Origin: a virus | Lineage: Duplodnaviria > Heunggongvirae > Uroviricota > Caudoviricetes | Virus record (IMG/VR): IMGVR_UViG_2713896799_000015 | Coordinates: 1 to 41,227 of that record | Strand: one strand, 5' to 3' | DNA length: 41,227 bases | Part shown: positions 3,190 to 35,792 of the stretch, in pieces | How the letters are laid out: every line of letters begins with the position of its first letter | How positions within the stretch are numbered: the stretch's first letter is position 1 | The notes under the pieces: model-generated | The model's input: only the letters and a program-made list of their open reading frames with translations | What the model was told of the DNA's origin: nothing | The model's database searches: none | Position numbers and translations under genes: made by a program

Positions 3190-3204
3190 TTACCCTATAG
3201 GTGA
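3190..3204. promoter_or_regulatory. Operator-like site TTACC-CTATA-GGTGA (imperfect) upstream of acyltransferase gene
   Basis: Matches the TTACC-N5-GGTAA family with one mismatch in the right half; 37 bp upstream of the 3241 start. Confidence 0.4.
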
Positions 3205-3240
3205 TATCATTGGGTTATCCTATTCAAAACGATAGCAATT

Positions 3241-5181
3241 ATGTCTTATTTAAAATACAGAACAGATATTGATGGGCTGCGAGCTATTGCGGTTTTGCTG
3301 GTCGTGCTGTACCACGCAAACTTTCCTATTCATGGTGGTTTTATTGGTGTAGATGTTTTTTTCGTCATATCAGGATATCTCATTACCAACATCATATATA
3401 AAGAGACTAAAAGAAATATTTTTTCATTCCTTAATTTTTACAAACGTCGAATAAAGAGATTGCTCCCAGCTTTTGCTTTTCTTCTTTTATTTTTATTTGT
3501 TTACTGCAAATTATATTTGATGCCAGATGAACTTATATCATTCTCTAAAAGTGCGGTATACGCTCTTCTTGGCATAAGCAATTTCTATTTTTTTAGTAGC
3601 ACAGGTTACTTTAACTCAACCTCTTATGAACCGCTTTTACACACATGGTCGCTTTCCGTTGAAGAGCAGTTCTACATTGTATGGCCTTTCATCGTTTTCA
3701 TGCTCGCTCGGAACTCAGGGACAAAAAAAGCAATAATAATATCCTCATTACTATTTATTGTATTCCTTGGTATTTCACAGTATGGAGCGGTTAATTATAA
3801 AACAGCAGCGTATCTCCTACTGCCTTTTAGGTTCTTTGAGTTGCTCTCAGGTGCCCTACTTGCTATCTATAAAGATTCAATAACAAAACATCTGCGCCAC
3901 GGTTCTGTAATTTCACTGGTCGGCGTAATGCTGATTGTGTTGAGTTCATTATTTATAAATTCTAACACGCCATTTCCTGGGTTCACTGTTTTGCCTACAT
4001 GTTTAGGCGCTGTAATGCTTATTGCTGCAGGTGACTCATCCAAAAACTTCATTTCTAAAGTGCTGTCTTTAACTCCAGTTGTTTATGTAGGAAGAATTTC
4101 CTACTCTCTTTATTTATGGCACTGGCCTGTACTGATTCTTGCTGAATATAGGGGGATCGATCTTACGGCCTTAAATGCGACGGCGCTCATACTTATCGCA
4201 TTCATCATGGCAAGCATAAGCTATCACTTCGTTGAAAAGCCATTTAGGAAGGATTCGCTGCAATATTTCAGGACTGCATTTATAACCATCTACCTGATAC
4301 CATTAATAGTATCCGCTGCCTATGCAGCGTACATTTTAAAAAATGATGGTTTTCGCGCCAAAAGTTCAGAGTTAGTATCTGAATTAGAAGAGAGAAATGC
4401 GACAAATATTATGCGCCCACAGTGTATTGATAAATTATTTATCGGTAATGTAAATGACTGTCATCTTGGCGTTAATAAAGGCGAAGTAGATGGCGTGCTT
4501 CTTGGTGACTCCTTTGGTAATGCATATGCTTACTTTATTGATGAACTTGCGAAAGATGCTGGAATATCAATAACAGATACTACATATAGCTCAACACCTG
4601 TAATATCAGGAATTTATGTGCAGGATATCAGGAATAAGATATCTGACATAGATGCTAACCTGATAATGACATATACAAAAAACAGGCTGGAGTATGCAGC
4701 AAAACAAAAGTTCGCGATAATTTCCGTTTTTTGGGATCAGTACGGGCCACAAAATAATTACTTCCGTATCTTCGATAAAAACGGTGACGTATCGGAGAAT
4801 GCTTACCAGTTGCAATCTGAAGCAATAAAATATCTGCTGTCCAATGGCGTGAAAGTTTACATCATTGCAAGACCTTACCAGTCTATTGGCCCTGCTGCGA
4901 TAAACAAACTGCGCCAAATTAAGCTGCGGCATGGGGATGTAACAACTGAAAAATATGAATACGGCGTAAAGAAAGATGATCGGATAGAATACAAGTTAAA
5001 GCAGGAGTTCCCTCAGATAACGCTAATCGATCCTAACGATGTACTTTGCCACAAAGGGGAATGTGATGCCATCGTGGATGGAAAGATCATTTTCAGAACT
5101 GATGGTTCACACCTGAATGCTGTTGGAGCAAAAAAAATCGGGGAAGAGTATTTGAAAAACTACGCAAACCCATTTCGATAA
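3241..5181 (+). CDS. O-antigen acetyltransferase, OafA/Oac-like (acyltransferase-3 membrane domain plus C-terminal SGNH-type domain)
   Basis: N-terminal RTDIDGLRAIAVLLVVLYHA...GVDVFFVISGYLIT motif, about 10 TM segments, 646 aa; AT-rich and opposite in strand to neighbours (moron). Confidence 0.8.
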   Translation: MSYLKYRTDIDGLRAIAVLLVVLYHANFPIHGGFIGVDVFFVISGYLITNIIYKETKRNIFSFLNFYKRRIKRLLPAFAFLLLFLFVYCKLYLMPDELISFSKSAVYALLGISNFYFFSSTGYFNSTSYEPLLHTWSLSVEEQFYIVWPFIVFMLARNSGTKKAIIISSLLFIVFLGISQYGAVNYKTAAYLLLPFRFFELLSGALLAIYKDSITKHLRHGSVISLVGVMLIVLSSLFINSNTPFPGFTVLPTCLGAVMLIAAGDSSKNFISKVLSLTPVVYVGRISYSLYLWHWPVLILAEYRGIDLTALNATALILIAFIMASISYHFVEKPFRKDSLQYFRTAFITIYLIPLIVSAAYAAYILKNDGFRAKSSELVSELEERNATNIMRPQCIDKLFIGNVNDCHLGVNKGEVDGVLLGDSFGNAYAYFIDELAKDAGISITDTTYSSTPVISGIYVQDIRNKISDIDANLIMTYTKNRLEYAAKQKFAIISVFWDQYGPQNNYFRIFDKNGDVSENAYQLQSEAIKYLLSNGVKVYIIARPYQSIGPAAINKLRQIKLRHGDVTTEKYEYGVKKDDRIEYKLKQEFPQITLIDPNDVLCHKGECDAIVDGKIIFRTDGSHLNAVGAKKIGEEYLKNYANPFR

Positions 5182-5185
5182 GGAG

Positions 5186-5203
5186 TGCGCCTCGCGGCGC
5201 ACA
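5186..5203. terminator. Hairpin between convergent acyltransferase and tailspike genes
   Basis: GTGCGCC-TCGC-GGCGCAC palindrome between two stop codons. Confidence 0.5.
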
Positions 5204-5211
5204 TGCCTAAA

Positions 5212-7443
5212 TTAAGACTTCTTAATGTACGACCATGTAACAGTGGTCGTACCGCTGCTGGTAATAGATATATTCCTTTCTGATGCGCTTGCTGTGAGGA
5301 ACGCCGCAGTCTTCAGCGTCTGGATCATTGCTGTCGTACCATCATAAATTACCAGGAATGAAATCGCGTAGTTTGCACCTCCGCCAGAAACCCACACGTT
5401 AACATCATAAACTCCCTCAGAGTTTGGCAAAGTAAATAGCACGGACGCTACGTTAGCGTTGACCGATTTAGTACCCTTGTCGGTATAGACCGTGGGCACC
5501 TGAAGCCCATTGGCATTTTTATTTTCTACATACCCACCAGCAATAACGCCTGACGTGATGCAGTTCGTGTAGTTAACGTTGCCGGTGCTCACAGTAGAGA
5601 TGGTTGGAGTTCCTCCGGCCGGAGCCTGGAACCGGCAGTTATCTGCATCAACCTGCGAGGTTACATCTGCGTGGATGAATGATGGATAGCCGGCCATTCC
5701 TTCAAAAGCGATCGGCGTACCATCGAAGCTATCTTTGCAGTTCAGCATCTTCACGCGAGATCCATTCATCGCGCGGTAAAAATCAACGATACCATTAGAA
5801 CCACCGAAAGATGTTTTCAACTTGTTGCCAGAACCAACTGCCCCGACTATCGAAACGGTTGAATTATCGAATGTCATAAACGCCACCTCAAGTGCTGAGT
5901 TGTTGTTTATAACGTTCGCCTCACCATCAAAACCGGAGATAAGAAATCCGTGACAATTCGAAAGGTAAATAGCAGACTGACCGATAGACGCGTTGGAGTT
6001 TACTGTCATCTTATCTGCTGCGCAGTTCGTCATCTGCCCTGAAAGGAGGTTTGTTAAATACCACGCGCATACACCCCCCATTACATAGCAGGACTCATAA
6101 TGGATCGTCGTGCCGGTGTTTTTGTAGAAACCACCGCGACTGCGACGCACCCATACATGCTCAAGCCTAGACATATAATTTCCAGAGTCGTCATATACTC
6201 CCCACCATGCCCCATCTATATCGACGTTTTTAATCCTTATCAAACCCGGCGATGTCTCACCACCATTTATAAGAATGCCAATTTTACCGTCGTTTGTGGC
6301 AGCATCTGTTGGATAGTCAATTCCATTCTGATCATAGAAAATATATAAATTCTCAATATTTCCTGAAGCAAAAGACTCTCCATAATGGAAGCACGCTTTA
6401 TTTCCAATTACGGAAATAAAAGTCCCTGATCTGTTTATTATGTTATTACACTCACCGTATACAGTTGCAGATGTATTCATCTTAATAATGTCATTAACAA
6501 AATATGCATTTCCACCTGGAATAAACACATTTCGTCCAGTGTTAATAGCTGCCTGTATTCCTGCGTAGTCAAAAGACTGGGTAAGCGATGTCACAAATGG
6601 ATATACCATTTGTGCTGCTGTCAATGTTGAAAACACTTCGCTTAACTGATGAAGTTTTCCATCGCCTGTAGCACCAAAATCTTTTGCACTAATAAAATCG
6701 CTGTTTTTATCATGCTGTGTACGAATAAATGAACTAATGAAAGGTTGCTTCACCGAGATCAGAGCATCGCCTTTCCCGTCCTCGCCGCTGGCCAACTGGT
6801 TGAATACGTCAGCCGCCGTTCCTGAAGGCACAGGGAACGGAACGGGCTTACCGTTGGCGATGCCGATTATGCTTCCTTCAAGTTGAGCGAGAGGTGGCAG
6901 CGGATCGATATAAGAATCAGGAACACGGATTGTATGGTCGATATTCGATAAAACTGTACTGTCCACATAATTCTTTGTGGATGCATCCTGCGGGTTTACC
7001 GGGTCTTTCAGGTTTCGAATATAGTTGTTCAGCGCGTTATAATAATTTGCCACGAATGACGGCTTGCGCAGCGCCAAGCTAAACCAACTTCGAACCTGCT
7101 GGATCAGCATCGTTAGCTTATCAAAAGCATCCTCATGCACTTCTGCAAAGAACTTACCCTGATTACGCAAATCAGTTTCCTGCGTAACCGGGAGCTCTCG
7201 TGATATAGAAATCTGGTAACCGTTAGCTAACGCCTTCGACAGAATTACATTACCGCCGTTATATCCACCAGCCCCAGTGACAGTGTAATCAGTATCAAGA
7301 GCCAGCACAGCGATATTTTCGTCAAGGTCAACCACCTGCACTACCAGATCAGATTCCTTGAAAACCCTAAAGGTATAAGGGAATGAAGTCGTAACGCCAT
7401 TGCCTGTGTATTCGTTGTGGTCAACTTCGGTTGAGACCGTCAT
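5212..7443 (-). CDS. Tailspike / tail fiber protein
   Basis: N-terminus (YTGNGVTTSFPYTFRVF...) resembles the T7 gp17-type adaptor domain; long Gly/Asn-rich beta-helix-like body; last gene of the T7-like structural order. Confidence 0.7.
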   Translation of the reverse strand: MTVSTEVDHNEYTGNGVTTSFPYTFRVFKESDLVVQVVDLDENIAVLALDTDYTVTGAGGYNGGNVILSKALANGYQISISRELPVTQETDLRNQGKFFAEVHEDAFDKLTMLIQQVRSWFSLALRKPSFVANYYNALNNYIRNLKDPVNPQDASTKNYVDSTVLSNIDHTIRVPDSYIDPLPPLAQLEGSIIGIANGKPVPFPVPSGTAADVFNQLASGEDGKGDALISVKQPFISSFIRTQHDKNSDFISAKDFGATGDGKLHQLSEVFSTLTAAQMVYPFVTSLTQSFDYAGIQAAINTGRNVFIPGGNAYFVNDIIKMNTSATVYGECNNIINRSGTFISVIGNKACFHYGESFASGNIENLYIFYDQNGIDYPTDAATNDGKIGILINGGETSPGLIRIKNVDIDGAWWGVYDDSGNYMSRLEHVWVRRSRGGFYKNTGTTIHYESCYVMGGVCAWYLTNLLSGQMTNCAADKMTVNSNASIGQSAIYLSNCHGFLISGFDGEANVINNNSALEVAFMTFDNSTVSIVGAVGSGNKLKTSFGGSNGIVDFYRAMNGSRVKMLNCKDSFDGTPIAFEGMAGYPSFIHADVTSQVDADNCRFQAPAGGTPTISTVSTGNVNYTNCITSGVIAGGYVENKNANGLQVPTVYTDKGTKSVNANVASVLFTLPNSEGVYDVNVWVSGGGANYAISFLVIYDGTTAMIQTLKTAAFLTASASERNISITSSGTTTVTWSYIKKS

Positions 7444-7547
7444 GTTAAATCTCCAGATAGTCGCAGCACCCGTTGCGCCGCATATCTGGTTATTCTATTA
7501 CCTGAAAAACCATATATGGATAGAAAGGCTGTAAATACGAATAGATA

Positions 7548-7562
7548 TTACCTTTCAGGTAA
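7548..7562. promoter_or_regulatory. Operator TTACCTTTCAGGTAA (perfect)
   Basis: 15-bp palindrome; the 16-mer ATTACCTTTCAGGTAA is identical to the copy at 25375-25390. Confidence 0.6.
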
Positions 7563-7599
7563 TTTGCAAAACGTGCTGGATAGCAAACAAATTATTTGC

Positions 7600-7619
7600 T
7601 ACTGTATAAATATACAGTT
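7600..7619. promoter_or_regulatory. LexA (SOS) box
   Basis: TACTGTATAAATATACAGTT matches consensus TACTGTATATATATACAGTA at 18 of 20 positions; 20 bp upstream of the 7640 ATG. Confidence 0.75.
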
Positions 7620-7639
7620 ATTGCATGGAGAAGATTAAG

Positions 7640-7897
7640 ATGCAGCAGTATCACTATCCACTGGAAGACGGATTTACCGAAAGGATTCACACGCCGGGAG
7701 GCGTCAGGTCACTGGTGGAGGGATCGCACTTGATGAAATTACTCCGGGATCTCGATAAGGATGGATTTAATGTCGATGGCCCACTTGCCGAACTGACTGC
7801 ACTGATTAACTACGTCACCAGCTCACAGATGTCTATGCGGGATCTGCAAACACATCTCGACTATTGTGCCGAACAATTACGAAAACAAACCCGGTAA
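7640..7897 (+). CDS. Small antirepressor-like protein (stand-alone homolog of Ant C-terminal domain)
   Basis: GGAG 9 nt upstream of ATG; aligns with the last ~85 residues of the 312-aa Ant (shared YxYPL, IHxPxGV, LMKLL, DG, AELT, RDxQTH). Confidence 0.55.
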   Translation: MQQYHYPLEDGFTERIHTPGGVRSLVEGSHLMKLLRDLDKDGFNVDGPLAELTALINYVTSSQMSMRDLQTHLDYCAEQLRKQTR

Positions 7898-7904
7898 ATT
7901 TAAA

Positions 7905-7920
7905 GGCCGCAAGAGCGGCC
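7905..7920. terminator. Hairpin GGCCGC-AAGA-GCGGCC downstream of ant (minus) and of the small gene (plus)
   Basis: On the minus strand the stem is followed by TTTAAATTT. Confidence 0.45.
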
Positions 7921-7921
7921 T

Positions 7922-7933
7922 GTGACATGTCAC
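7922..7933. repeat. Palindrome GTGACATGTCAC, copy 1 of 3
   Basis: Perfect 12-bp palindrome 1 nt from the hairpin; same 12-mer at 26364 and 28628. Confidence 0.7.
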
Positions 7934-7971
7934 GCTAGTTTCGTTTTGCACGTCCCTGTGCCGCCGTTCTG

Positions 7972-8910
7972 TCAGAAGAACCCTGCCTTGTCGTTGATGT
8001 ATTCCGCGTGCGTCTGGATATCACGCAGGCATTTGCTCACACCGACGATGTAGCAGAACATGGTGGTCAGCTCCGCCGCCGCGCCCGATACATCGTGCCC
8101 GTCTTCCTGTAACTGGTTCAGCAGTTTCATCAGCAGTGAGTTCTCCGTCAGGCCGAGAACACCCGACGGCGAATGAATCAGACTGCGGTAGCCTGGCTTC
8201 AATGGATAACCATAACATTTTGTCTGTGTTTTAATTGCCTCACGAAGCGCATCTAACATCTTGACTGCCACTTCATCATTCTCTGATGCAGATCCAGCAG
8301 GGAGATACTCCCCTTCAAGCGGAACCCGAGCAACAAGAGACAACGCTTCGGCAAATTGATCTTCACCAATTTCTTTGTACGAACAGCCAAAATGAGATTT
8401 CAGTGACGACCACATGGTGATCATCGCCTTAGCCTGTTTTTCTTTTGGCAGAGACTGACCGCGACTCATGACGAGTTGTTTAATGGCTTCCTGCTGTTCA
8501 GTTGTTATTTTACCCGGCAACGCCTTTTTAGCTTTGCGTGGGTTAACCACATGGCCTTTAGTCCAGTACTCGTAGAGCACATCGTCACACTCTTCCTGAT
8601 ACTGGATTACCTTGTCGCGGATTTCAGGGCGGACTTTGTTAGGGCTGATGCTGTTCAACCAAGCTGCCAATTTTCGTAAAGCCATACAAATCATGGCTTG
8701 CACCCCACCGGCAGAAGGTATGGTGATTTCCACCATACCCTTCGAGAAGCGTTGAGAAATCTTCTTATGTTGAGATTTCCAGTCTAGCCCCATTCCCTCA
8801 ACGATAGGTTTCATTGGGGTATACGGTTCGCCGTTGTGATTGACAACATAAAGCTCTGCGCCGTGGAATGGCACGTTGATAGTAGATACTGCTGTTGCTA
8901 TACTCGTCAT
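7972..8910 (-). CDS. Antirepressor Ant
   Basis: 312 aa, directly downstream of an Arc-like gene as in P22 immI; C-terminal domain shared with the small LexA-linked gene. Confidence 0.65.
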   Translation of the reverse strand: MTSIATAVSTINVPFHGAELYVVNHNGEPYTPMKPIVEGMGLDWKSQHKKISQRFSKGMVEITIPSAGGVQAMICMALRKLAAWLNSISPNKVRPEIRDKVIQYQEECDDVLYEYWTKGHVVNPRKAKKALPGKITTEQQEAIKQLVMSRGQSLPKEKQAKAMITMWSSLKSHFGCSYKEIGEDQFAEALSLVARVPLEGEYLPAGSASENDEVAVKMLDALREAIKTQTKCYGYPLKPGYRSLIHSPSGVLGLTENSLLMKLLNQLQEDGHDVSGAAAELTTMFCYIVGVSKCLRDIQTHAEYINDKAGFF

Positions 8911-8958
8911 GTCGTTAATTCCTATACGTAGTTTTACGATACTGAAGCCCTGACGGTC

Positions 8959-8973
8959 TGGCCACCGTGGGGC
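8959..8973. promoter_or_regulatory. Mnt/Arc-type operator-like site (core CCACCGTGGGGC)
   Basis: Shares 12 bp with the 9165-9179 palindrome; lies between arc and ant. Confidence 0.4.
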
Positions 8974-8982
8974 TTCGCTGTT

Positions 8983-9150
8983 TTATGCCACGCTATTCTT
9001 CTCACCAGTGAGTCCATACACTTTCCTCAGCTGATAGATAATCTCTGTATTGAACTTTCGGCATTCTTTTTCGCCATTTCTTTCAATAGCTAACTTCACA
9101 TCGTCCGGAAAACGAACTCGTCGTTGACACATCTCTTTTGCTTTTTGCAT
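8983..9150 (-). CDS. Arc-like ribbon-helix-helix repressor
   Basis: 55 aa from ATG at 9150 with AAGGAG RBS; RVRFPDDVKLAIERNGEKECRKFNTEIIYQL resembles the P22 Arc fold signature. Confidence 0.55.
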   Translation of the reverse strand: MQKAKEMCQRRVRFPDDVKLAIERNGEKECRKFNTEIIYQLRKVYGLTGEKNSVA

Positions 9151-9164
9151 TTCATATCTCCTTA

Positions 9165-9179
9165 GCCCCACCGTGGGGC
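9165..9179. promoter_or_regulatory. Perfect 15-bp palindrome GCCCCACCGTGGGGC (Mnt-operator-like)
   Basis: In the divergent arc/mnt control region; central CACCGTG recalls the P22 Omnt core (from memory). Confidence 0.5.
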
Positions 9180-9270
9180 AAAATAATTGTCACACCGTGC
9201 GTCATTGATGTCAAGCACACGGTGAGGCATACTTCAATCATTGCAAGTAACTCAATATTTGGTGAAGAAC

Positions 9271-9702
9271 ATGAGCAGAGAAGATCCACAACTAAGGATC
9301 AGACTTCCCGTCGAAGTAAAAGAAAAAATAGAAATTTCTGCAAAAGCCAATAAGCGATCAATGAACGCTGAAATAGTACAACGTCTTGACACCAGCTTTC
9401 TGAAAGATATTCATGAAGATGACGTAATTTCTGCTTATGAAGCAAAAATCATTGCAAACAATGCACGACATGAAATATCAAATATTATTTTCAAAAGAAC
9501 CTTTAATGAAATTAATAAGAAAATAACACTTGGACATACAAGTTTTTATATAAACCTTAATGACCTTGAACTGGAATCACTTGCAGATAATGATTACCAG
9601 ATCATCTTTGAAAAAACATTTAATAAGCTCAATGAACTAGGTTACATCATCTGTGAAAACTCATGGGATGCAGATGGTTTTGGAATTGAAATACCTGAAT
9701 AG
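9271..9702 (+). CDS. Mnt-like RHH repressor with ~70-aa AT-rich C-terminal extension
   Basis: N-terminus MSREDPQLRIRLPVEVKEKIEISAKANKRSMNAEIVQRL parallels P22 Mnt; protein is 143 aa versus 82 for Mnt. Confidence 0.5.
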   Translation: MSREDPQLRIRLPVEVKEKIEISAKANKRSMNAEIVQRLDTSFLKDIHEDDVISAYEAKIIANNARHEISNIIFKRTFNEINKKITLGHTSFYINLNDLELESLADNDYQIIFEKTFNKLNELGYIICENSWDADGFGIEIPE

Positions 9703-9744
9703 GAAGAACAAAAGGCGTGTACATATTACACGTCTTTAATACAA

Positions 9745-25078: not shown

Positions 25079-25285
25079 TTACTGACCAAGCAGCGTTTTA
25101 CCGCTGGTATTAGCGGTTGATGTGTCGCCCTGAGAACCGGTAAGCAGCGTAGAACTACGACCAGCAGCAGCGCGACGGCGACGTGTTTCTTCGTCGCGGG
25201 CATCAACAACGGCGGCATCCTGCTCCTGTGGTGCTGCCTGAACTTCTGGTGTTGCAGGCACTGATGGTGAGCTACCCATGCACAT
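25079..25285 (-). CDS. Possible small protein upstream of portal
   Basis: 68-aa ORF only; low-complexity composition, no other support. Confidence 0.2.
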   Translation of the reverse strand: MCMGSSPSVPATPEVQAAPQEQDAAVVDARDEETRRRRAAAGRSSTLLTGSQGDTSTANTSGKTLLGQ

Positions 25286-25353
25286 ATCAATGACTCCGTA
25301 CGCAATTAAATTATTATCAATTTAACCACATATGATTTATTTATCGTAGAAGG

Positions 25354-25390
25354 TTGACATTTAACGCGTGAATTATTACCTTTCAGGTAA
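25354..25390 (+). promoter_or_regulatory. Promoter-like TTGACA plus operator TTACCTTTCAGGTAA (25376-25390)
   Basis: TTGACA at 25354-25359; perfect operator copy begins 17 bp later, upstream of the tRNA unit. Confidence 0.45.
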
Positions 25391-25712: not shown

Positions 25713-25789
25713 GTGGCATTAGCTCAGTCGGACAGAGCAACCGCCTTCTAAGCGGTTGGTCGCAGGTTCGAATCCTGCATGCCACGCCA
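25713..25789 (+). tRNA. tRNA-Arg (anticodon UCU)
   Basis: 77-nt cloverleaf: acceptor GTGGCAT/ATGCCAC, anticodon stem ACCGC/GCGGT, loop CTTCTAA, T-arm GCAGG-TTCGAAT-CCTGC, encoded CCA. Confidence 0.85.
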
Positions 25790-27925: not shown

Positions 27926-28518
27926 TGATTACCATCCTGACGTTCTTTGAGTCGCTTCCTGGCTGCCGCTATGCGATCAGCAATTGTCACATTCACATTA
28001 ACATCCAGGCGTTCTTTGAACGCGTTGACGTCGACGTGCTTACCAATCAGTTCGAGGTTCTTCACCTTGTCAGGCCATTTAATTTTTTTGAGGATTGTCT
28101 CTATCGAATCCTCGTTCATGTTCATGATGGTCGATGACAGATCAAAGCCACTAAGCGTAGTGCGCCAGATTTTCGGCCACTCGCGGATTGGCTTAAGGCT
28201 CCCATCGTCGTTGAGGATGTCGATCACGTCCATCTGGTCGATCTCCACCAGGCGCATGAGAACGTAATCAGCACTGACGCGCATTCGTTTGTTGCGCTCC
28301 TCCATCAACTCGGCAATCCGTTTTTGAATGCGTTCATCGCGCATCATGACACTGGCTTTAACTGCCGCTGTATTTGGGGAGAATCCTGCGTTAATCGCTG
28401 CCTGAGTCTGGTTTTCAGGCGTTTTGATGTATGACTGGCAATAAGCCTCCTGCATTGCTGTTAGTGGCTTAAATTGCGTTGATTTGCGTTTATAGGTTTT
28501 AGGTTCAGCAGGCATCAT
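27922..28518 (-). CDS. Terminase small subunit
   Basis: Start taken at MMPAEPK (28518); the longer ORF's N-terminal extension lies over a DNA repeat region and is unlikely to be translated. Confidence 0.55.
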   Translation of the reverse strand: MMPAEPKTYKRKSTQFKPLTAMQEAYCQSYIKTPENQTQAAINAGFSPNTAAVKASVMMRDERIQKRIAELMEERNKRMRVSADYVLMRLVEIDQMDVIDILNDDGSLKPIREWPKIWRTTLSGFDLSSTIMNMNEDSIETILKKIKWPDKVKNLELIGKHVDVNAFKERLDVNVNVTIADRIAAARKRLKERQDGNQ

Positions 28519-28560
28519 AACCACCGTGGTAATAGTTACCGTTGTGGTAATAGTACCATG

Positions 28561-28587: not shown

Positions 28588-28627
28588 AGTATTCAAAACC
28601 ATCAAATTCATCATGCATAATCTACTC

Positions 28628-28639
28628 GTGACATGTCAC
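28628..28639. repeat. Palindrome GTGACATGTCAC, copy 3 of 3
   Basis: Perfect 12-mer overlapping the stop of the 28636-28977 gene, 41 nt upstream (minus sense) of the terminator. Confidence 0.7.
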
Positions 28640-28977: not shown

Positions 28978-29248
28978 TATTTACCTTTATCGCGTATACC
29001 TTTACCGGTTTATCGCCGAAGTGGGGATGTGTGATTGTCTTGATTTCATATCCGTCATACGGGACGTCAATTCTACGACTGGAGTCGTCGCGCTTCGGAT
29101 ATCCCTTTGTGATAATCAGTCGGTCATAATCCCTGAACATAATTCGCTTATTCCAGTAGTCATTACACAGGCGATACTCTTCCGTTTTCTCTCCGCGAAT
29201 GATGGCATCGAAGTATTCACCTTTAACGGCTAGTTGCAGGTTAGCCAC
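28967..29248 (-). CDS. Hypothetical protein (possibly ASCH-like)
   Basis: 93-aa ORF in operon; fold call is weak. Confidence 0.35.
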   Translation of the reverse strand: MANLQLAVKGEYFDAIIRGEKTEEYRLCNDYWNKRIMFRDYDRLIITKGYPKRDDSSRRIDVPYDGYEIKTITHPHFGDKPVKVYAIKVNIDG

Positions 29249-29912
29249 GATTAACCTCCTGCGGCGGTTCTGGTAGAGGCATCCAGAACAAGGCGTTCCC
29301 TAACCACGATAAAGTGCCGTCGCTCAACTCCACGTATTCCCCTTGTACCTGTCCTGCCATATACTCGCCGTGCTTTGAATAAATTAAAATCCAATCATCT
29401 TGAGGGGGCATTCGCTCACTACAGCTTATCCAACCATCCGGAGTTACCGGAGAGTTGCCTGCCAGTCTACGCAAAACAGCCTTAACAGCCTCAATACGGT
29501 CATCATCGCAATTTTCCAGCGTATCTATGCGGTCGAGCATGATGATGGCGTTATCAATATCAGGATTGCCGGTCCACTCATTACCGCGATTGGATTCGGC
29601 AGCCTGGTTGCGCATAATCTCAGGCGTAAGCTCTTTGTAAGCATAAGCAAGAGGCTCTGATGCATTATCCGGCACAACCGACGCAGGCGCGGCAGCATAA
29701 ACAGGAATAACGTCCGGTTGCTCTTTATTGCTTTCATCCGTTAAAGCCCAGAATAATTTCCCGGCCGGATGTTTGAAAATATAAGCAACTGGTTCTGCTT
29801 CCAGCGATGCCAGCGTAATCCGTGCAAGTTCCATTTGTTCACCACGGGTAAGCCCGTTTTCAAGCGGATTTTTAATGAACAATTCAATACGTTCTTTGGT
29901 AATAGTGGTCAT
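29241..29912 (-). CDS. DUF551-type phage protein
   Basis: C-terminal DGWISCSERMPP...FWMPLPEPP is the characteristic DUF551 signature. Confidence 0.5.
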   Translation of the reverse strand: MTTITKERIELFIKNPLENGLTRGEQMELARITLASLEAEPVAYIFKHPAGKLFWALTDESNKEQPDVIPVYAAAPASVVPDNASEPLAYAYKELTPEIMRNQAAESNRGNEWTGNPDIDNAIIMLDRIDTLENCDDDRIEAVKAVLRRLAGNSPVTPDGWISCSERMPPQDDWILIYSKHGEYMAGQVQGEYVELSDGTLSWLGNALFWMPLPEPPQEVNRG

Positions 29913-29922
29913 TTGTTAGTCC

Positions 29923-30678
29923 TTAAACTGCTAGTTGCAATTGCATTTCAAAGCGGTCGCGTTGTTCACAATACGCAAGAGAACCAGGGCTATTGTGTGC
30001 CTCAATCCGTTCTACCATTAATGCTGCGCGTGTCTCTTTACTTGCAGGTGCATAAGCCCCAGACCAGGCTTTATCAATACCGATGTTTCGAGCGACGTTC
30101 GTACTATCTGCGCTGGCTAAGGGTAATTTTGTGAATATCAGCGGATTTAACATGCGCAATCCATGTAGTTTCGTAACCGGCTGACCATGCTCATCAACAA
30201 TGTGACGAATCAGGTCTTTCATTCTGGCTACCGCAAGAGTTGGGCGCTTTACGTCATAGTCGCCACAACTACCGATAGCCACTCGCGGAAACTCATTGCA
30301 CAAATGAATAAATCGCTCGTCACTTTCATTCATGTGCCACACTGGAACGCCAGCTAGTTTTCCGTGAGGCCACTCATTCAGAAGCGCATCATTTTCCTCC
30401 TCTCCGCCATCAATAACATCCGGGATAATGGCAAAATCGAATCCTGGGTGATTCTTCCAGCGAGCGACAAACTCGTAGTAATCGCTCCAGTCGATTTTGT
30501 TTTTGCCAGCTGCTTTCCAGGCGGTGAATGCACCGTTGTCCAGCGCGAACGACTGACAGTATTCAGCCGCGAGATTGATCTGGCCTGAATGCGCAAAACT
30601 GATAAACGCATGTCGCCCTTTCCATGCTCTCATTGCGCACGTATCAGGAGTAATAGGCCCACCGTGGTAGTGAATCAT
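29923..30678 (-). CDS. Hypothetical protein, 251 aa
   Basis: No clear family; weak resemblance of VAIGSCGDYD to a TGT/DpdA glycine-rich motif. Confidence 0.4.
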   Translation of the reverse strand: MIHYHGGPITPDTCAMRAWKGRHAFISFAHSGQINLAAEYCQSFALDNGAFTAWKAAGKNKIDWSDYYEFVARWKNHPGFDFAIIPDVIDGGEEENDALLNEWPHGKLAGVPVWHMNESDERFIHLCNEFPRVAIGSCGDYDVKRPTLAVARMKDLIRHIVDEHGQPVTKLHGLRMLNPLIFTKLPLASADSTNVARNIGIDKAWSGAYAPASKETRAALMVERIEAHNSPGSLAYCEQRDRFEMQLQLAV

Positions 30679-30679
30679 C

Positions 30680-31093
30680 TCACTCTCCTTTGATGCGAAT
30701 GCCAGTGGCGCGGATTGCAGCGATGACTTCAGAAACTTTGTATGCCATTACCGTTTGGTAATCATCGTGAAAATCTGTTCGATGAAGCATGCTGCTACGT
30801 TCCGGGAGCAGTATTTCCCGCTCCTCCAGTTCTGCTATGCGCTTTTTTGCTGCTTCCAGTTCATCCAGTAATTCCAGCACGGTAGCCGGATTAGCCTTGG
30901 CAACAAAATCCCGGACTGGCTTACAATCAATCTCCGCAATGGGTTGATACGATGTGTAGCCATGCTGTCTTGTATAACTACCGTGACGAATAACGAAAAA
31001 ATCACCGTTTATTTTTTTAGCTTGCCACTTATCTTTACCGGCTTTCACTGCCACATCACGCAGTGCCTGATAGTCAATTGTCATTCTCGCCAT
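30680..31093 (-). CDS. Hypothetical protein with Ea22-like coiled-coil
   Basis: LLDELEAAKKRIAELEERE segment. Confidence 0.4.
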   Translation of the reverse strand: MARMTIDYQALRDVAVKAGKDKWQAKKINGDFFVIRHGSYTRQHGYTSYQPIAEIDCKPVRDFVAKANPATVLELLDELEAAKKRIAELEEREILLPERSSMLHRTDFHDDYQTVMAYKVSEVIAAIRATGIRIKGE

Positions 31094-31725
31094 CCTTCAC
31101 AGTTGTAATCACTACAGCCTTCAAAATCATATGGGCTGTACTGCCAGGAGATTTTTCCGCAATGCGGACAATTCCAACGCACCTTCCCGCTTCGCGACTT
31201 CTTTCTTCTGTTCTGCTCTTTCAACCAGTCAGGCATGACCAAACCTGCGCCCTGAACCATTGTTCTGCGGTTAAAGTTATTGATATTGAACGTCCGGCGC
31301 TTTGCTGCATCAGCAATGGAAAATGGCAACCAAACTATTCCTGGTTCGTTTTTGTTGGCGACGCTAAAGATGGTCGCTTTACTGAAGTCATCTGTTGGCA
31401 ATCCACCGTGTTGAAGCCAGTAAACATCGTTGCCGTTCCAGCTACCTTTTTTGTAGGCCACATACGCAGTGCAATCTGGCTCAATCAGGTTTTCTGTAGG
31501 GATGTACTGGCAATCAACGTGCCACACAGCCATTGCATTCACGCTATCAGCGCAAACAGGCTGATCGATATCTCGACCACAATTCCAGGCTTTTTGGGCT
31601 TCTTCCAGCGTGTAAACATGAGCGCGATCGATATTAGAACTGTAACCATTGCCGTTATGGCAATGGAATGAAGCGTTATTACCCACAGTTTCACGCAAGC
31701 ACATCATGTAAAAGCGGTTATTCAC
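31081..31725 (-). CDS. Hypothetical Cys-rich protein
   Basis: GTG start overlapping upstream stop (GTGA) with AAGGAGG 7 nt upstream; C-terminal CPHCG...CEGW cluster. Confidence 0.45.
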   Translation of the reverse strand: MNNRFYMMCLRETVGNNASFHCHNGNGYSSNIDRAHVYTLEEAQKAWNCGRDIDQPVCADSVNAMAVWHVDCQYIPTENLIEPDCTAYVAYKKGSWNGNDVYWLQHGGLPTDDFSKATIFSVANKNEPGIVWLPFSIADAAKRRTFNINNFNRRTMVQGAGLVMPDWLKEQNRRKKSRSGKVRWNCPHCGKISWQYSPYDFEGCSDYNCEGWRE

Positions 31726-32201
31726 TGGCTGCCTCCTTTGCGAAGCTGCTCCGCACAATGCAGCAGGGCGTCCGTCGCTTCTTTCACCGTAACGATGTCG
31801 CCATCGTCCAGCCCGACAACCGTCGCGTCCTTAACGAACACCGCGCAAAGGTCATTAAACGCCTTAGCCCGTACTTCAGCCAGGAAAGCGTCGGTAGCTG
31901 GGGTTTCGATATCGTTAATTTCAGGAAGAATCTCTTCCCATGTAGCGATATCGCCATTCAAATGCCATCCGGCAATTCCACTGGAGTTATCCGCAACACT
32001 GCGAACGGCTTCAATAGTTTCATGCATTGCCGCATTCTCCGCCACCAGCGCATTAGCACGCACCAGTTGCACTTCCAGTTGCGTTGCCAAATCGCTGAGC
32101 AGCTTTGCCACACTACGCATATCAACGGCACCACATTCAGCTTTCAGTTCCGAAGCCATCTCATGCCCGGCGGCAACTAACCCTTTGATATTACTTTCCA
32201 T
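31722..32201 (-). CDS. Hypothetical protein
   Basis: 159-aa acidic ORF in operon. Confidence 0.45.
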   Translation of the reverse strand: MESNIKGLVAAGHEMASELKAECGAVDMRSVAKLLSDLATQLEVQLVRANALVAENAAMHETIEAVRSVADNSSGIAGWHLNGDIATWEEILPEINDIETPATDAFLAEVRAKAFNDLCAVFVKDATVVGLDDGDIVTVKEATDALLHCAEQLRKGGSQ

Positions 32202-32262
32202 CTTTACCCTCGCTTATCCACATAACTTATTGATTACATTGATAACTAAAAAGATCGTCGAT

Positions 32263-32607
32263 TCAGAACTTTTCGATGTTCCAGCCACCACCTGCTTTCT
32301 TTGGTTTAACCGTTACCCCGATGATTCGGAACGGATACTGATCTGCGGCGACTTTGGTTTTCACCCTGGCGTCGTCGGTCCAGAAACCTTTCACTTCGTG
32401 CAGTTCCATCTCGCCGGTGGCGAGCATCACAGCAAAATCGGGCGTATAGAACGTGTTGTCAGCTAACCGCAACTTGATACCCTCAAATCGATACCAGACG
32501 ATTTCTCCTGCACGTTTACGCAGCTCAAGGTGCTGGCAATACGCAGATTCTGTTTTGTTCATCTGGCCTGTTTTGAGTCGACCAAGAGCCTGTATCTGTT
32601 TTCTCAT
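32263..32607 (-). CDS. DUF1064-type phage protein
   Basis: 114 aa, common small protein of lambdoid replication regions (family call by recollection). Confidence 0.45.
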   Translation of the reverse strand: MRKQIQALGRLKTGQMNKTESAYCQHLELRKRAGEIVWYRFEGIKLRLADNTFYTPDFAVMLATGEMELHEVKGFWTDDARVKTKVAADQYPFRIIGVTVKPKKAGGGWNIEKF

Positions 32608-32610
32608 GAT

Positions 32611-32688
32611 TTACCCCTTAGGTAATTAAAAACCACATAAGACATGAAATCAATAGAAATTAGAACATTTTATTACCTACAAGGTAAT
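32611..32688. promoter_or_regulatory. Two perfect operators (TTACCCCTTAGGTAA 32611-32625; TTACCTACAAGGTAA 32674-32688)
   Basis: First copy starts 4 bp from the ATG of the 32607 gene and covers its RBS; both lie in a 117-bp gap between same-strand genes. Confidence 0.55.
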
Positions 32689-32724
32689 CATATAGGCGTA
32701 AAAAAATGCGCTATCGCGCTGGTA

Positions 32725-33525
32725 TTACTTGATAAATCCTGCCGCCTTTCCCCGCCTGTATTCCTCCATCAGCCACTGCGCCGGTGTTATTCCCCCAAGG
32801 GTGGCGGCGTTAGGCATGCACCCGAAACTTCGCCCTGGTGGATGGTAAACGTCTCTCCCTGTGTCCGGAGGTGTACTCATGGGCTCTGGCTTTGCCTGTA
32901 TGCTGATCACCGGATCGGGTATCTGCTGTCCGGAAGCCACCTTTTTCGCCCAATCATCGAGCAGCCTGCGCGCGTGTTTCTCAACCTCAATCTCGCTAAG
33001 CTGGCGCTGATACATTGCACGGCGGGTATCACATACGACCCAGTACATAACCGGATGTCGCCACGGGAATCTTTCGGGACCACCAGGATATAAACTTTTT
33101 TCCTTGCTGTACCGATGAAACTCCGCCATCACATCGTCAATGGTGACGCCAAGAACCATCTTGCTGTCTTTACACCACTTGATGAATTGCCCTGGCGACG
33201 GCCAGAACGGAGATTCACTGGCGCGGGCGTGGCGCATACCAGCAGAAACCTGTTCACGGGTTCGGATCCCACTTTCAGCAAACGCAGCAATCCACTGCTG
33301 TTTTGCAGCGACTTCCTGCTCTGGCGTCTTCAGGTTGGTTACCACTGCCGCCGGAAACAGTTGTTTCAGCTGTTTAAAAAGGGCATCAACAAGCCTCTCT
33401 GCTGACATGTTCACCACATTGTCATTGTTGACGTACTGATGCTCATAACCTGACATGCGAGAAAGGGCTTCTCCGTCACGGTTTTGTATCGCGGTAAAAA
33501 CGTTGTTCACAAGAAATCCTCCCAT
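32725..33525 (-). CDS. Replication protein, lambda P-like (helicase loader candidate)
   Basis: Follows the initiator gene with overlap; family call by recollection. Confidence 0.45.
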   Translation of the reverse strand: MGGFLVNNVFTAIQNRDGEALSRMSGYEHQYVNNDNVVNMSAERLVDALFKQLKQLFPAAVVTNLKTPEQEVAAKQQWIAAFAESGIRTREQVSAGMRHARASESPFWPSPGQFIKWCKDSKMVLGVTIDDVMAEFHRYSKEKSLYPGGPERFPWRHPVMYWVVCDTRRAMYQRQLSEIEVEKHARRLLDDWAKKVASGQQIPDPVISIQAKPEPMSTPPDTGRDVYHPPGRSFGCMPNAATLGGITPAQWLMEEYRRGKAAGFIK

Positions 33526-34322
33526 GCTTCAGGGCTGTTCCAGTGCGGAACGTTGTTATCAGGTAATGTTGATTGCTTCTGTCTGCTAATCTGCAGCCGC
33601 CTTGCCAGCTTCTGCTCCCACTGTGCCTGATGGTATGCCTTACCCTCAGCCATCCAGTAAATTCTGAACTCTGCAAGTTCCTGTGCCGTTGGCAGACTGT
33701 CCAGGTAGATCCCCTGCAATGAGCTTTTCCGAAGAAAGTCATCTGATGGCTGCCATTGTTCATGCATGACAAATTTGCCTAATTGCCCTGGCCCACCAGG
33801 AGGAACAAAGTTATTCATCACGGCGTTGTTTGCTCCGGGGTCATGAGGCACAGAATCCCCGCTTTTTGTCCTGCTCTCCCTCTCTTGGTTAAATGACTGG
33901 TTATATGACTGGTTCTGGATCCCGTTTTTGGGATCATTCAACATCCCGTTTTTGGGATCATTCAACATCCCGTTTTTGGGTATATTCCCGTTTTCGGTAA
34001 CATTACCGTTTTCGGGTTCATTACCCCCTTCCCGGTTGCCTTTAATGTTCCCGTTTTTGGTTATATTAAGAGAGAAAACCCGCACTCTTTTCGTCGCTCC
34101 CTTTCTCTCTCCGGTATCTGAAATAAGCCCCATTTTCATGAGCGATATAAGCCCGGCCTGCACGGTTTTTTTATTCAGGCAAGTGTCTTTAACGAGGCGT
34201 TCTATGCTGGGGTAGCAGAGGTTATATTCATCGGCTCTGTCAGCCATCGAGAGCAGTATGAGCTTTAATGATGAGCTACCTGGATCTGTCTCCCAGGCCC
34301 AATCTGTTGCATGTCTGCTCAT
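33507..34322 (-). CDS. Replication initiator, lambda O-like, with internal iterons
   Basis: N-terminal winged-helix-like region; central NGxLNDPK peptide repeats encoded by DNA direct repeats. Confidence 0.55.
   Translation of the reverse strand: MSRHATDWAWETDPGSSSLKLILLSMADRADEYNLCYPSIERLVKDTCLNKKTVQAGLISLMKMGLISDTGERKGATKRVRVFSLNITKNGNIKGNREGGNEPENGNVTENGNIPKNGMLNDPKNGMLNDPKNGIQNQSYNQSFNQERESRTKSGDSVPHDPGANNAVMNNFVPPGGPGQLGKFVMHEQWQPSDDFLRKSSLQGIYLDSLPTAQELAEFRIYWMAEGKAYHQAQWEQKLARRLQISRQKQSTLPDNNVPHWNSPEAWEDFL
33919..34060. repeat. Iteron array (probable origin of replication)
   Basis: ATCCCGTTTTTGGGATCATTCAAC twice in tandem (33919-33942, 33943-33966), then four degenerate CCCGTTTT(T/C)GG copies. 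Confidence 0.65.
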
Positions 34323-34337
34323 GATTAATCTCCGCTA

Positions 34338-34538
34338 TCAGCTTGAGTGTTGTGGGGAGGAATTAATCATGATCTGCTTAATCTCTGCCCTGATGCGACG
34401 GTTTGATTCCATGGTGCACTCAACACAGTGTCCGTTGTAAACCCAGCGTTCACTGTCATGTCCGTGCTTACATGGTTTTCCGGTGTAGTAGCGTTTAAGT
34501 CCGCGCTTTGCGGCATCAATACGTGTAATGATTTCCAT
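34338..34538 (-). CDS. Small zinc-ribbon protein (candidate early regulator)
   Basis: Start taken at MEIITR; CKHGH...CVEC motif. Confidence 0.35.
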   Translation of the reverse strand: MEIITRIDAAKRGLKRYYTGKPCKHGHDSERWVYNGHCVECTMESNRRIRAEIKQIMINSSPQHSS

Positions 34539-34618
34539 GGTAAGCCCTGTTATTAGTATTGGGATTACGGTTATTTTGTGCTGACACAAAAAAAAGATCA
34601 ACCATATTTGGTTTTTTA

Positions 34619-34633
34619 TTACCTTTGAGGTAC
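34619..34633. promoter_or_regulatory. Operator-like site TTACCTTTGAGGTAC (one mismatch)
   Basis: Between the cro-like gene and the next downstream gene. Confidence 0.4.
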
Positions 34634-34688
34634 GAATAGATATGAAAAGACCGCCGGATGGCGGTCTACAGAGGGTTGTGGCTGGATA

Positions 34689-34919
34689 TCATGAGTAGAA
34701 GAAGTATGCCAATTCTGCTTTTGAGCGCAGCCATTGTCTTGATTTACAGGCTTTAAAAAGCCCATCCATCAATACCTTACCTGGCATTTTGCGCTTACCT
34801 GTTAAGTGAGTCTGGATATAGTGACTCGTCGTTCCGGCTTCCTGTGCGAAGGCTTCACGCTCATCCGGAGTAAGTGCAAGCCAGTGCTTTTTGAAATCGA
34901 AATGTCCGTTATCGCTCAT
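34689..34919 (-). CDS. Cro-like HTH regulator
   Basis: 76 aa, divergent from the repressor, reads toward replication genes; a hairpin (34649-34666) follows it. Confidence 0.5.
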   Translation of the reverse strand: MSDNGHFDFKKHWLALTPDEREAFAQEAGTTSHYIQTHLTGKRKMPGKVLMDGLFKACKSRQWLRSKAELAYFFYS

Positions 34920-34955
34920 AGCTATTGCCTGATATTTATTTCAGATAATAAATAT

Positions 34956-35019
34956 TCACCTATAAGGTAACAAAAATCAAGGATAGTTACCCATGAGGTG
35001 CATTTACCTGTTGGGTAAT
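34956..35019. promoter_or_regulatory. Operator cluster (OR-like): three sites between cro-like and repressor genes
   Basis: TCACCTATAAGGTAA (34956-34970), TTACCCATGAGGTGC (34987-35001), TTACCTGTTGGGTAA (35005-35019). Confidence 0.6.
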
Positions 35020-35073
35020 ATTGCTTTAAATTGAATCATCTTCTGATTCAGATATGAGGCGATTTTCCAGAAA

Positions 35074-35658
35074 ATGAAAAGTATCCAGGACGTCCGCAGG
35101 CAAAATCTCAACGACTTGATCGACCGTGAATTCAATGGTGTTCAGACGCGGATGGCTGAAAAACTTGGAACTCAGGCAAATCTGGTAAACCGCTGGGCTC
35201 TTGGCAAGAAGGTTATCGGCGACCAGGTTGCGCGAAAAATTGAAGCTGCCGCCAATAAACCCCGTAACTGGCTTGATATCGATCGCTCGCTTTCTCAGGA
35301 AGGTTTTCAGCCTGTCGGACCAAGCGACATTGGTCAACTGGCGGCTCACAACCTGGAACGCTGGATGAGCGAAAGCCGCGACCTTTCAACGCAGGGAAAA
35401 CTTCACCGCGCATCCGGCGTCGCCCAGGTGACAATCAGCCGCCTGTTAAACAATGAGGTCAGCGTTTCCATTTCCACCCTGGAGAATGTTGCATCCGCAT
35501 TCGGGCGTCACGGCTATGAATTACTGATTCACCCGCACGACCCTGCGACTATCAACTATGACCGCTCGCGCTACGCTTTGTTACCCGAAACCGAGAAAGC
35601 AAAGATCGAAAGTTACATTGAATTTGTCATCAACCAGAACGAAAAAAACAAACAATAA
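35074..35658 (+). CDS. Prophage repressor, tandem HTH, no peptidase domain
   Basis: Two XRE-type HTH segments in 194 aa; no S24 Ser/Lys autopeptidase region; flanked by operator clusters. Confidence 0.55.
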   Translation: MKSIQDVRRQNLNDLIDREFNGVQTRMAEKLGTQANLVNRWALGKKVIGDQVARKIEAAANKPRNWLDIDRSLSQEGFQPVGPSDIGQLAAHNLERWMSESRDLSTQGKLHRASGVAQVTISRLLNNEVSVSISTLENVASAFGRHGYELLIHPHDPATINYDRSRYALLPETEKAKIESYIEFVINQNEKNKQ

Positions 35659-35678
35659 AATCATATTTTTCAGTAAGT

Positions 35679-35705
35679 AAGCCGCCTTCTGGCGGCTTTT
35701 TTATT
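35679..35705 (+). terminator. Terminator after repressor gene
   Basis: GCCGCC-TTCT-GGCGGC followed by TTTTTTATT. Confidence 0.65.
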
Positions 35706-35715
35706 GCCTGTTAGA

Positions 35716-35792
35716 TTACCTAACAGGTAATTTTTTTAACTCATATCTATTGACATCAAACCAGATACGCATAATTATTACCTCAACGGTAA
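35716..35792. promoter_or_regulatory. Operator pair (OL-like) with TTGACA promoter element between them
   Basis: TTACCTAACAGGTAA (35716-35730) and TTACCTCAACGGTAA (35778-35792); TTGACA at 35750-35755. Confidence 0.6.

Follow-up and report, generated by a model that had tools for sequence, protein, structure and literature searches.

Dispersed TTACC-N5-GGTAA palindromes as probable Rep operators in a phiV10/TL-2011b-like prophage, an arrangement known from epsilon15-type phages

The prophage and its relatives

The window analysed here is a stretch of 41,227 bp of viral DNA (IMG/VR record IMGVR_UViG_2713896799_000015). Judging by its sequence, it is a phiV10/TL-2011b-like Uetakevirus prophage of the epsilon15-like temperate podophage type. 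A 15-bp palindrome, TTACC-N5-GGTAA, is dispersed over it, and its copies are very likely the operators of Rep, the putative non-cleavable master repressor of this type of prophage (Table 1). The original prediction had taken the copies as one operator family of the repressor encoded at 35074-35658, which has two helix-turn-helix (HTH) regions, and enrichment, synteny, homology and a prior annotation in epsilon15 all bear this out. That first reading was right in outline and wrong in several details, and the phenomenon is known for the genus.

The DNA of the window was 96-98% identical to the Escherichia phages phiV10, TL-2011b, phiv142-3, PAS61 and ZX5, which are members of, or similar to, the genus Uetakevirus. 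Related prophages, recognised by a match to the 10-kb structural-gene block of the window, were found in 569 of the 5,426 complete E. coli genomes searched. The comparative set consisted of ten genomes: the window, phiV10, TL-2011b, epsilon15, SPC32H, Klebsiella phage BUCT711 and four prophage contigs (from Serratia, Raoultella, E. coli and one Logan run), the contigs having been recruited via Rep homologues of 54-59% identity. Where single loci have to be told apart we give their labels, among which L005 is TL-2011b, L090 the Serratia contig and L094 the Pseudomonas phage PseuP_224. A scan of IMG/VR with Rep returned 80 loci, every one encoding the identical protein, and so added no diversity.

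Table 1. Positions in the window of the operators, promoters, terminators and genes discussed in the text. PL, early-left promoter; PR, promoter of the cro-like gene; OL and OR, operators at the early-left promoter and between rep and the cro-like gene.
Feature	Position	Strand	Remarks
Rep, putative prophage master repressor	35074..35658	+	full-length homologue of SPC32H repressor 5D50_A
Ant, small antirepressor of Rep	7625..7897	+	open reading frame of 90 residues; matches 5D50_E
LexA box CTGTATAAATATACAG	7602..7617	+	perfect; overlaps ant promoter region
rep terminator hairpin	35679-35698		
OL2, upstream operator of PL	35716..35730	.	perfect; just past rep terminator; centre at about -62
PL-like early-left promoter, TTGACA-17-AATTAT	35750..35778	+	10/12 consensus positions
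OL1, operator over +1 of PL	35778..35792	.	perfect; begins at last base of -10 hexamer
OR3-like operator	35004..35018	.	perfect; closest to rep start; syntenic with epsilon15 33341
OR2-like degenerate operator	34987..35001	.	two mismatches, TTACCCATGAGGTGC
OR1-like operator	34956..34970	.	one mismatch; overlaps -35 hexamer and fills spacer of cro-like gene promoter
PR, promoter of cro-like gene, TTGTTA-17-TATTAT	34973-34945	-	
cro-like gene	34689-34919	-	matches phrog_35 (transcriptional-repressor PHROG)
Terminator of cro-like gene	34667-34648		
Operator upstream of gp40/replication unit	34619..34633	.	one mismatch; after terminator of cro-like gene
Upstream operator of DUF1064 (Holliday-junction-resolvase-like) unit	32673..32687	.	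perfect; directly after replication-gene terminator
Downstream operator of DUF1064 unit	32611..32625	.	perfect; begins at end of -10 hexamer; contains Shine-Dalgarno sequence
terS tandem operators	28518..28550	.	28536 perfect, 28518 one mismatch; 18 bp apart
Head/structural operon operator	25376..25390	.	perfect; serves gp3-like gene 25079-25285 (-)
Tailspike/ant operator	7548..7562	.	perfect; between tailspike gene 5212-7443 (-) and ant 7625-7897 (+)
Lysis cassette operator	3190..3204	.	one mismatch; divergent gap adjoining acyltransferase gene
Lysis cassette: gp23-like, holin, endolysin, Rz	gp23-like start 3095	-	
One-mismatch match	2948..2962	.	inside gp23-like open reading frame; no syntenic counterpart in relatives

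Abundance of the palindrome

An exact search of the window found eight perfect sites (starting at 7548, 25376, 28536, 32611, 32673, 35004, 35716 and 35778), where dinucleotide-preserving shuffles gave a mean of 0.01. Permitting one mismatch added five more (2948, 3190, 28518, 34619 and 34956), and the resulting 13 compare with 0.76 expected from the shuffles. The enrichment that had been claimed is therefore real, although the number given for it, seven perfect and four single-mismatch copies, was an undercount. The list lacked 2948 and the tandem at terS (28518/28536), placed the site at 32673 one base off, at 32674, and credited sites 7548 and 25376 with 16 bp of identity when they share 17 identical bases, TATTACCTTTCAGGTAA. 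It also counted five copies beside the repressor gene; four of these stand as such, and the fifth was probably the two-mismatch copy at 34987, which completes a three-site OR.

As a host control, four 50-kb pieces of an E. coli chromosome were sampled. The chromosome itself harbours a related prophage, which is located outside the sampled 200 kb. The sample contained no perfect site, indicating that the perfect sites are specific to the element; this also agrees with the expectation in the original prediction that the motif would not be equally frequent in unrelated DNA. Seven one-mismatch sites were present, a background of about 1.4 such matches per 41 kb, and about one of the five one-mismatch sites in the window is thus expected to be a chance match. 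Separately, we rejected the match at 2948 as a member of the family, as it lies within an open reading frame, carries a mismatch and is not syntenic; it is probably a chance match.

When all 5-N(0-8)-5 palindromes were counted without bias, TTACC with its 5-base gap came out on top, both in the window and in each of the related loci tested. In phiV10, 12 of the 14 sites fell within the non-coding 6.5% of the genome (binomial P about 5e-13), and the remaining two were within a doubtful 5′ extension of the annotated terS open reading frame.

Rep and Ant

Residues 1-190 of Rep aligned with the SPC32H repressor 5D50_A (E = 4e-42). The protein was 100% identical to phiV10 gp40 and to ORF21 of ZX5, which the ZX5 authors named repressor. 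Against Pfam it matched HTH families only, with HTH_3 at residues 106-147 and a weak YdaS/Cro-like HTH at residues 21-61, and an S24 peptidase domain was not found. Its C-terminal half aligned with the dimerisation and tetramerisation domains of SPC32H Rep. By homology, Rep would thus begin with an HTH DNA-binding domain, followed by an HTH_3-type dimerisation domain in the middle and a region for tetramerisation and Ant binding at the C terminus. Aligning ten Rep proteins gave 46 invariant columns, of which 29 fell within residues 1-70, including N36, L37, R40 and W41, which belong to the presumed recognition helix.

PMC9638917 describes SPC32H Rep as a tetramer that binds palindromic sites with paired DNA-binding domains from different dimers, and the Ant tetramer as breaking the Rep tetramer. 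The same order of domains (N-terminal DNA-binding, middle dimerisation, C-terminal tetramerisation) is given in PMC9986798, which adds that the mechanism of Rep “has not been extensively characterized”. In ZX5, overexpression of the repressor abolished free phage and lowered the holin and endolysin transcripts by 99.97-99.99% (PMC9782041).

The Ant open reading frame matched 5D50_E, described as Anti-repressor protein, with an E value of 1.6e-46 and about 87% identity over 83 residues. The perfect LexA box ahead of this SPC32H Ant homologue upholds the proposal that the antirepressor is LexA-linked. As a separate observation, the antirepressor was much more conserved than its target, since relative to SPC32H Ant was about 87% identical and Rep only about 42%. 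Beside Ant lies a module resembling P22 immI, which comprises a large Ant with a P22_AR_N domain (7972-8910, minus strand), a small open reading frame matching the Arc-like repressor of TL-2011b (8983-9171, minus strand) and a divergent Arc-domain open reading frame (9241-9702, plus strand). The prophage thus carries two antirepressor systems. No Rep site was found within the immI-like module.

Conservation of the motif and its spacing

A motif scan over related prophages had been proposed in the original prediction. In ours, TTACC-N5-GGTAA was unchanged and its sites were syntenic throughout the ten genomes, with Rep identity ranging from 42 to 100%. The syntenic regions were terS, head, tail/ant, lysis, PL, OR, gp40 and DUF1064/RuvC.

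Spacings between neighbouring sites were also conserved. The centres of the two PL sites were separated by 62 bp in eight of the ten genomes, by 63 bp in BUCT711 and by 75 bp in the Serratia contig. At DUF1064/RuvC, a 62-bp pair was shared by the window and six of the nine relatives, and in L090 and L093 an 18-bp tandem took its place. Pairs with the 62-bp spacing were thus seen in the window (35716/35778 and 32611/32673) and in L001, L002, L004, L005, L091 and L092, the PL pair being found additionally in L093. A distance of 62 bp corresponds to about 5.9 helical turns, and its constancy suggests a fixed bridging geometry of the Rep tetramer. The OR sites were spaced 17 + 30/31 bp (47-48 bp overall), except in BUCT711, where only the 17-bp pair was present. 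The terS tandem sites were 18 bp apart wherever there were two. Between the paired sites the sequence diverged while the spacings of 62, 47-48 and 18 bp stayed.

The sites lie at module borders, and mosaic phages often share short conserved sequences at such borders. The palindromes could on these grounds be non-regulatory, either chance or compositional matches or junction sequences kept by recombination. However, next to none occur in shuffles or in host DNA, and the ten specified bases and the spacings were kept while the central N5 and the flanks diverged, which is the signature of a protein-binding site and not of recombination remnants. The sites furthermore overlap promoter elements, and a non-regulatory origin is so improbable as to be refuted for practical purposes.

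The only variant of the motif was found in the Pseudomonas phage PseuP_224. Its cI gene has TTACC-N4-GGTAA sites on both sides (2922, 2961, 3797 and 3823), with the same half-site as that of Rep and a spacer one base shorter. This cI resembles Rep in its N-terminal domain (39% identity); no similarity to Rep was seen in the C-terminal part. As an independent check from a more distant relative, the presence of the same half-site with a homologous N-terminal domain ties the half-site to that domain.

Prior annotation

The epsilon15 RefSeq record (NC_004775.2) contains seven protein_bind features labelled “repressor / lysogeny”. Three of them adjoin early-left genes; terS, the head gene gp3 and the RuvC unit are each preceded by one, and the last is in the interval from gp19 to the tail fibre gene. 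They read ATTACC-N5-GGTAAT and have the same core motif as the window. Scanning with the 15-bp core recovered sites beyond the seven, namely the OR triplet, the second members of the 62-bp pairs and the lysis site. The phiV10 records have no operator annotation. A 17-bp consensus of the ATTACC-N5-GGTAAT form was reportedly given by Kropinski and colleagues in 2007. Our search of the literature on Uetakevirus and SPC32H operators, whose coverage excluded that work as well as Kim & Ryu 2013 and Kim 2016, found no paper defining the sites, and looking for the motif itself in the literature brought up unrelated papers only. The dispersed arrangement of operators is already known, being annotated for epsilon15 and studied in SPC32H. 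As the motif is already marked as repressor-binding in epsilon15, the finding is correct but ordinary for this genus.

Operators of the immunity region

PL and PR are the only promoters that we call with confidence. At PL, CTATTGACA and the -10 element were kept in eight genomes. The degenerate site at 34987 lies 17 and 31 bp from its neighbours, compared with 17 and 30 bp in the epsilon15 triplet 33341/33358/33388. The OR triplet extends over PR, and probably over the rep promoter as well, and the OR3-like site is probably a site of autoregulation. As a side observation, OL2 sits within a longer inverted repeat of 12 pairs followed by a T run (35703-35731), which a scan classed as terminator-like. 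This repeat could be a second terminator or a mere reflection of the palindromic operator.

Operators of the replication, packaging, late and lysis units

The site before the gp40 unit has an identical counterpart in phiV10, at 33112, and a conserved promoter-like sequence, TTGATC-16/17-CAAAAT, lies downstream of it. The DUF1064 unit repeats the layout of PL: a terminator is followed by an operator, the sequence CTATTGAtt-17-TTTAAT, a second operator and ATC-ATG. On the minus strand this region reads CTATTGATT-17-TTTAAT and then TTACCTAAGGGGTAA-ATC-ATG. The terS tandem lies in the stretch from the terminator that follows the gp49-like gene to the start codon of terS. Immediately before its first operator, and after the terminator, is the extended -10-like sequence TGgTACTAT, kept in nine genomes. 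The promoter-distal terS operator carries a Shine-Dalgarno sequence, GGTGG, 2 nt ahead of the ATG. In both the DUF1064 operator at 32611-32625 (AAGGGG) and the terS operator at 28518-28532 (GGTGG) the Shine-Dalgarno sequence is thus inside the operator, which ends 2-3 nt before the start codon. The 5′ untranslated region of these genes is therefore almost wholly operator sequence.

The original prediction had assigned the site at 25376 to the tRNA unit. The block from this operator to the start of the gp3-like gene was kept in seven genomes, among them epsilon15, which has no tRNA gene, and we assign the site to the head gene instead. The tRNA-Arg(TCT) gene itself (25713-25789, plus strand) is read in the direction leading away from the head operon; phiV10, SPC32H and TL-2011b also have this gene, and epsilon15 lacks it. 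The site at 7548 was syntenic in six genomes, and its tailspike side was kept as far as Klebsiella. Its assignment to the antirepressor holds in that it is linked to ant, but its link to the tailspike promoter is equally tight.

The site at 3190 had been placed in front of the acyltransferase gene. In phiV10, epsilon15 and SPC32H its position and the sequence toward gp23 were kept, and the gene on the opposite side varied (O-acetyltransferase, polymerase-inhibitor genes or a gtr-like gene). Its constant relation is thus to the gp23-holin-endolysin-Rz cassette, whatever serotype-conversion gene lies on the other side. A serotype-conversion gene, being expressed in the lysogen, is an unlikely target of Rep. 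At the head, tailspike/ant and lysis sites the upstream genes are on the other strand, so no operon reads into these sites and local promoters must be the target.

Mode of repression

Enrichment, synteny, the invariance of motif and spacing, the protein homologies, the LexA box and the promoter elements of PL and PR were computed directly. The binding of palindromes by a tetramer, the action of Ant and the repression of lysis transcripts are taken from the papers cited above. What we infer is that each site is occupied in this prophage, where the late units have their promoters, and that operator pairs are bridged.

Within an operator, one helical turn separates the centres of the two half-sites, which, going by this geometry and the SPC32H literature, would take a pair of N-terminal HTH domains. 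A Rep tetramer would provide two such pairs and could therefore hold two operators at once. At PL and DUF1064, the two operators 62 bp apart would bracket a sigma-70 promoter, one lying at about -62 and the other across +1. At terS, the tandem pair would cover the first transcribed bases and the ribosome-binding site, and the gp40/replication, head, tailspike/ant and lysis promoters would each have a single operator upstream. Each lytic transcription unit would in this way be shut at its own start by Rep. On induction, cleavage of LexA would allow Ant to be made, and Ant would strip Rep from the DNA. The proposal that one repressor silences many separate lytic entry points is thus supported as plausible.

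The original prediction had further described copies inside operons, with L5 stoperators as the functional model. All 12 syntenic sites are at unit borders, adjoining a terminator and/or a promoter, and no syntenic site was found within an open reading frame or between translationally coupled genes. Three of them are in divergent intergenic regions (head, tail and lysis), out of reach of any upstream operon. It is nevertheless conceivable that Rep at the dispersed sites acts mainly by stopping RNA polymerase that elongates from upstream units, as L5 gp71 does. Three groups of sites do follow the terminator of a co-oriented unit (34619 at gp40, 32673/32611 at DUF1064 and 28536/28518 at terS) and sit in the first transcribed bases or the 5′ untranslated region of the next gene, the terS and DUF1064 operators including the ribosome-binding site, and Rep bound at these positions would also stop terminator read-through. 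A palindromic site, however, makes orientation dependence impossible, the divergent sites receive no incoming transcript, at PL and PR the operators reach into core elements of the promoter, and, in contrast to L5, Rep belongs to a tetrameric family with an antirepressor. We consider a roadblock improbable as the main mode of action; at most it may arise at terS, DUF1064 and gp40 as a by-product.

Three points weigh against repression by Rep at every unit start. The single operators of the head, tail and lysis units precede the start codons by about 85-112 bp. With the promoters that we guessed for these units, the operators seem to be placed at around -60 to -70, beyond the reach of simple occlusion, and occlusion alone therefore does not explain repression there. 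A consensus promoter scan of the window gave no more matches than shuffles, so the promoters proposed for DUF1064, terS and the late units are putative, those of DUF1064, terS, tail and gp40 resting on conservation. In addition, the motif was invariant over Rep identities of 42-100%, leaving no variation of the site within the family with which the protein could covary.

The distance of the single late sites from their likely promoters could also indicate that, outside the immunity region, the palindrome mainly serves a different phage regulator recognising it, such as the cro-like gp39, in timing the lytic genes, with Rep acting only at OL and OR. This would not exclude the operator role of Rep. 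The cro-like open reading frame matches a transcriptional-repressor PHROG, and in lambdoid phages Cro and CI share operators. Yet the epsilon15 depositors ascribe the sites to the repressor, and overexpression of Rep alone removed the lysis-gene transcripts of ZX5 (PMC9782041). The N-terminal domain of Rep is moreover the part that stays invariant along with the motif, and the homologous domain in the Pseudomonas cI accompanies the same half-site. Another main ligand is thus unlikely, and we continue to regard Rep as the most likely protein to bind these sites.

Comparison with other repressor systems

The prophage shares with the Rep/Ant switch of epsilon15, SPC32H, phiV10 and ZX5 (PDB 5D50/5D4Z; epsilon15 gp38) the protein family, the operator core, the syntenic places of the sites and the position of Ant behind a LexA box. 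There was no difference in kind; the prophage in the window additionally has the P22 immI-like Ant/Arc module.

With gp71 of L5 and other Cluster A phages it has in common a single immunity repressor with many sites over the genome, which silences lytic genes at many points (PMC9283540). Stoperators of L5 are asymmetric 13-mers, more than 20 in number, which are bound by a monomer via two domains and block elongation in an orientation-dependent manner, and no antirepressor is known from these phages (PMC9283540). Here, 12 palindromic 15-bp sites are located at promoters in nine regulatory regions, the repressor belongs to a tetrameric family and an antirepressor is present. Neither an asymmetric 13-bp monomer site, nor orientation dependence, nor more than 20 sites inside operons were seen. 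The likeness to L5 stoperators is limited to one repressor with many sites, and every testable defining feature fails.

The three-site OR between divergent repressor and cro-like genes, with operators over -35 and -10 elements, resembles that of lambda CI. The oligomer-dependent binding of separated operators by CI can also be likened to that proposed for Rep. Unlike CI, Rep lacks an S24 self-cleavage domain and is inactivated by an antirepressor instead, and its operators reach late, lysis and packaging units, which in lambda are controlled via N and Q antitermination. Scattered sites through which a master repressor controls many transcription units are also found in phage P1 (C1 operators) and in the Streptomyces phage phiC31 (conserved inverted repeats, CIRs). 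The phiC31 CIRs are palindromic and lie at intergenic unit borders, and the P1 operators are asymmetric; in both phages the repressor families and motifs are unrelated to those of Rep.

No new class of regulation is opened by these results. Their practical value is in annotation, as the repressor regulon can be mapped by transfer from epsilon15 and SPC32H. The resulting map would have all lytic units silenced in the lysogen, and the O-antigen acyltransferase gene and the immI-like module are without a Rep site in the window. The 62-bp pairs yield a concrete, testable prediction on how the unusual tetrameric Rep engages DNA. This fixed phasing, the Shine-Dalgarno sequences inside operators and a second palindrome at the late units are the new minor points.

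A second palindrome at the late units

With up to two mismatches, the 14-bp palindrome AACCATATATGGTT was found at 3147-3160, 7508-7521, 25324-25337 and 34600-34613, and a weaker copy occurred near 32631. At this threshold it had no match in the 200 kb of host DNA. Permitting three mismatches gave seven matches in the window against 1.9 in shuffles. In each of the lysis, tailspike, head and gp40 units the Rep operator precedes it by 20-53 bp and the gene follows it, and it was syntenic in phiV10, TL-2011b, epsilon15, SPC32H and Klebsiella BUCT711. It overlaps weak -35 or spacer elements in a variable register, as in TCCATA-17-TAGAAT at the tail unit.

At two units a Rep half-site is fused to a half-site of this palindrome: the tail unit has TTACC-TGAAA-AACCA at 7498-7512 and the head unit TTATC-AATTT-AACCA at 25314-25328. 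In both, the coding-strand GGTAA runs exactly up to the start of the likely -10 hexamer. The fused half-sites look like a composite element. Tentatively, and with rather more doubt than confidence, we suggest that AACCATATATGGTT may be the site of a second regulator of late transcription or of the middle HTH of Rep, that each late promoter may be under composite control by Rep and this further factor, and that the 62-bp phasing may reflect obligatory bridging by the tetramer. The gp49-like, cro-like and PerC-like proteins gave no informative match in Pfam, NCBIfam or PDB that would name the protein binding AACCATATATGGTT. The palindrome was also tried as a -10 element, an extended -10 element and an IHF site, none of which fitted all loci.

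Additional sites and cargo genes

The window ends inside int, and the region upstream of the integrase gene falls outside it. In eight of the nine relatives a one-mismatch site was present just upstream of the integrase gene near attP, reading GGTATTACC-N5-GGTATAC or ATACC-N5-GGTAATAC (L001, 26870; L002, 26882; L004, 26960; L005, 135; L091, 16073; L092, 16783; L093, 15724; L095, 12620). No such site was listed in L090. TL-2011b has three more perfect Rep-type sites (33333, 34385 and 34478) in an accessory region with Bro-N and toxin genes. As this region is absent from the window, acquired modules also bring Rep operators with them.

Beyond the Rz gene are two cargo genes on the plus strand (1-516 and 532-1071), one encoding a glycine-zipper/TraT-like lipoprotein and the other a DUF5384 protein. 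In the RefSeq record of TL-2011b the lipoprotein gene is called “DNA methyltransferase”, apparently a misannotation.

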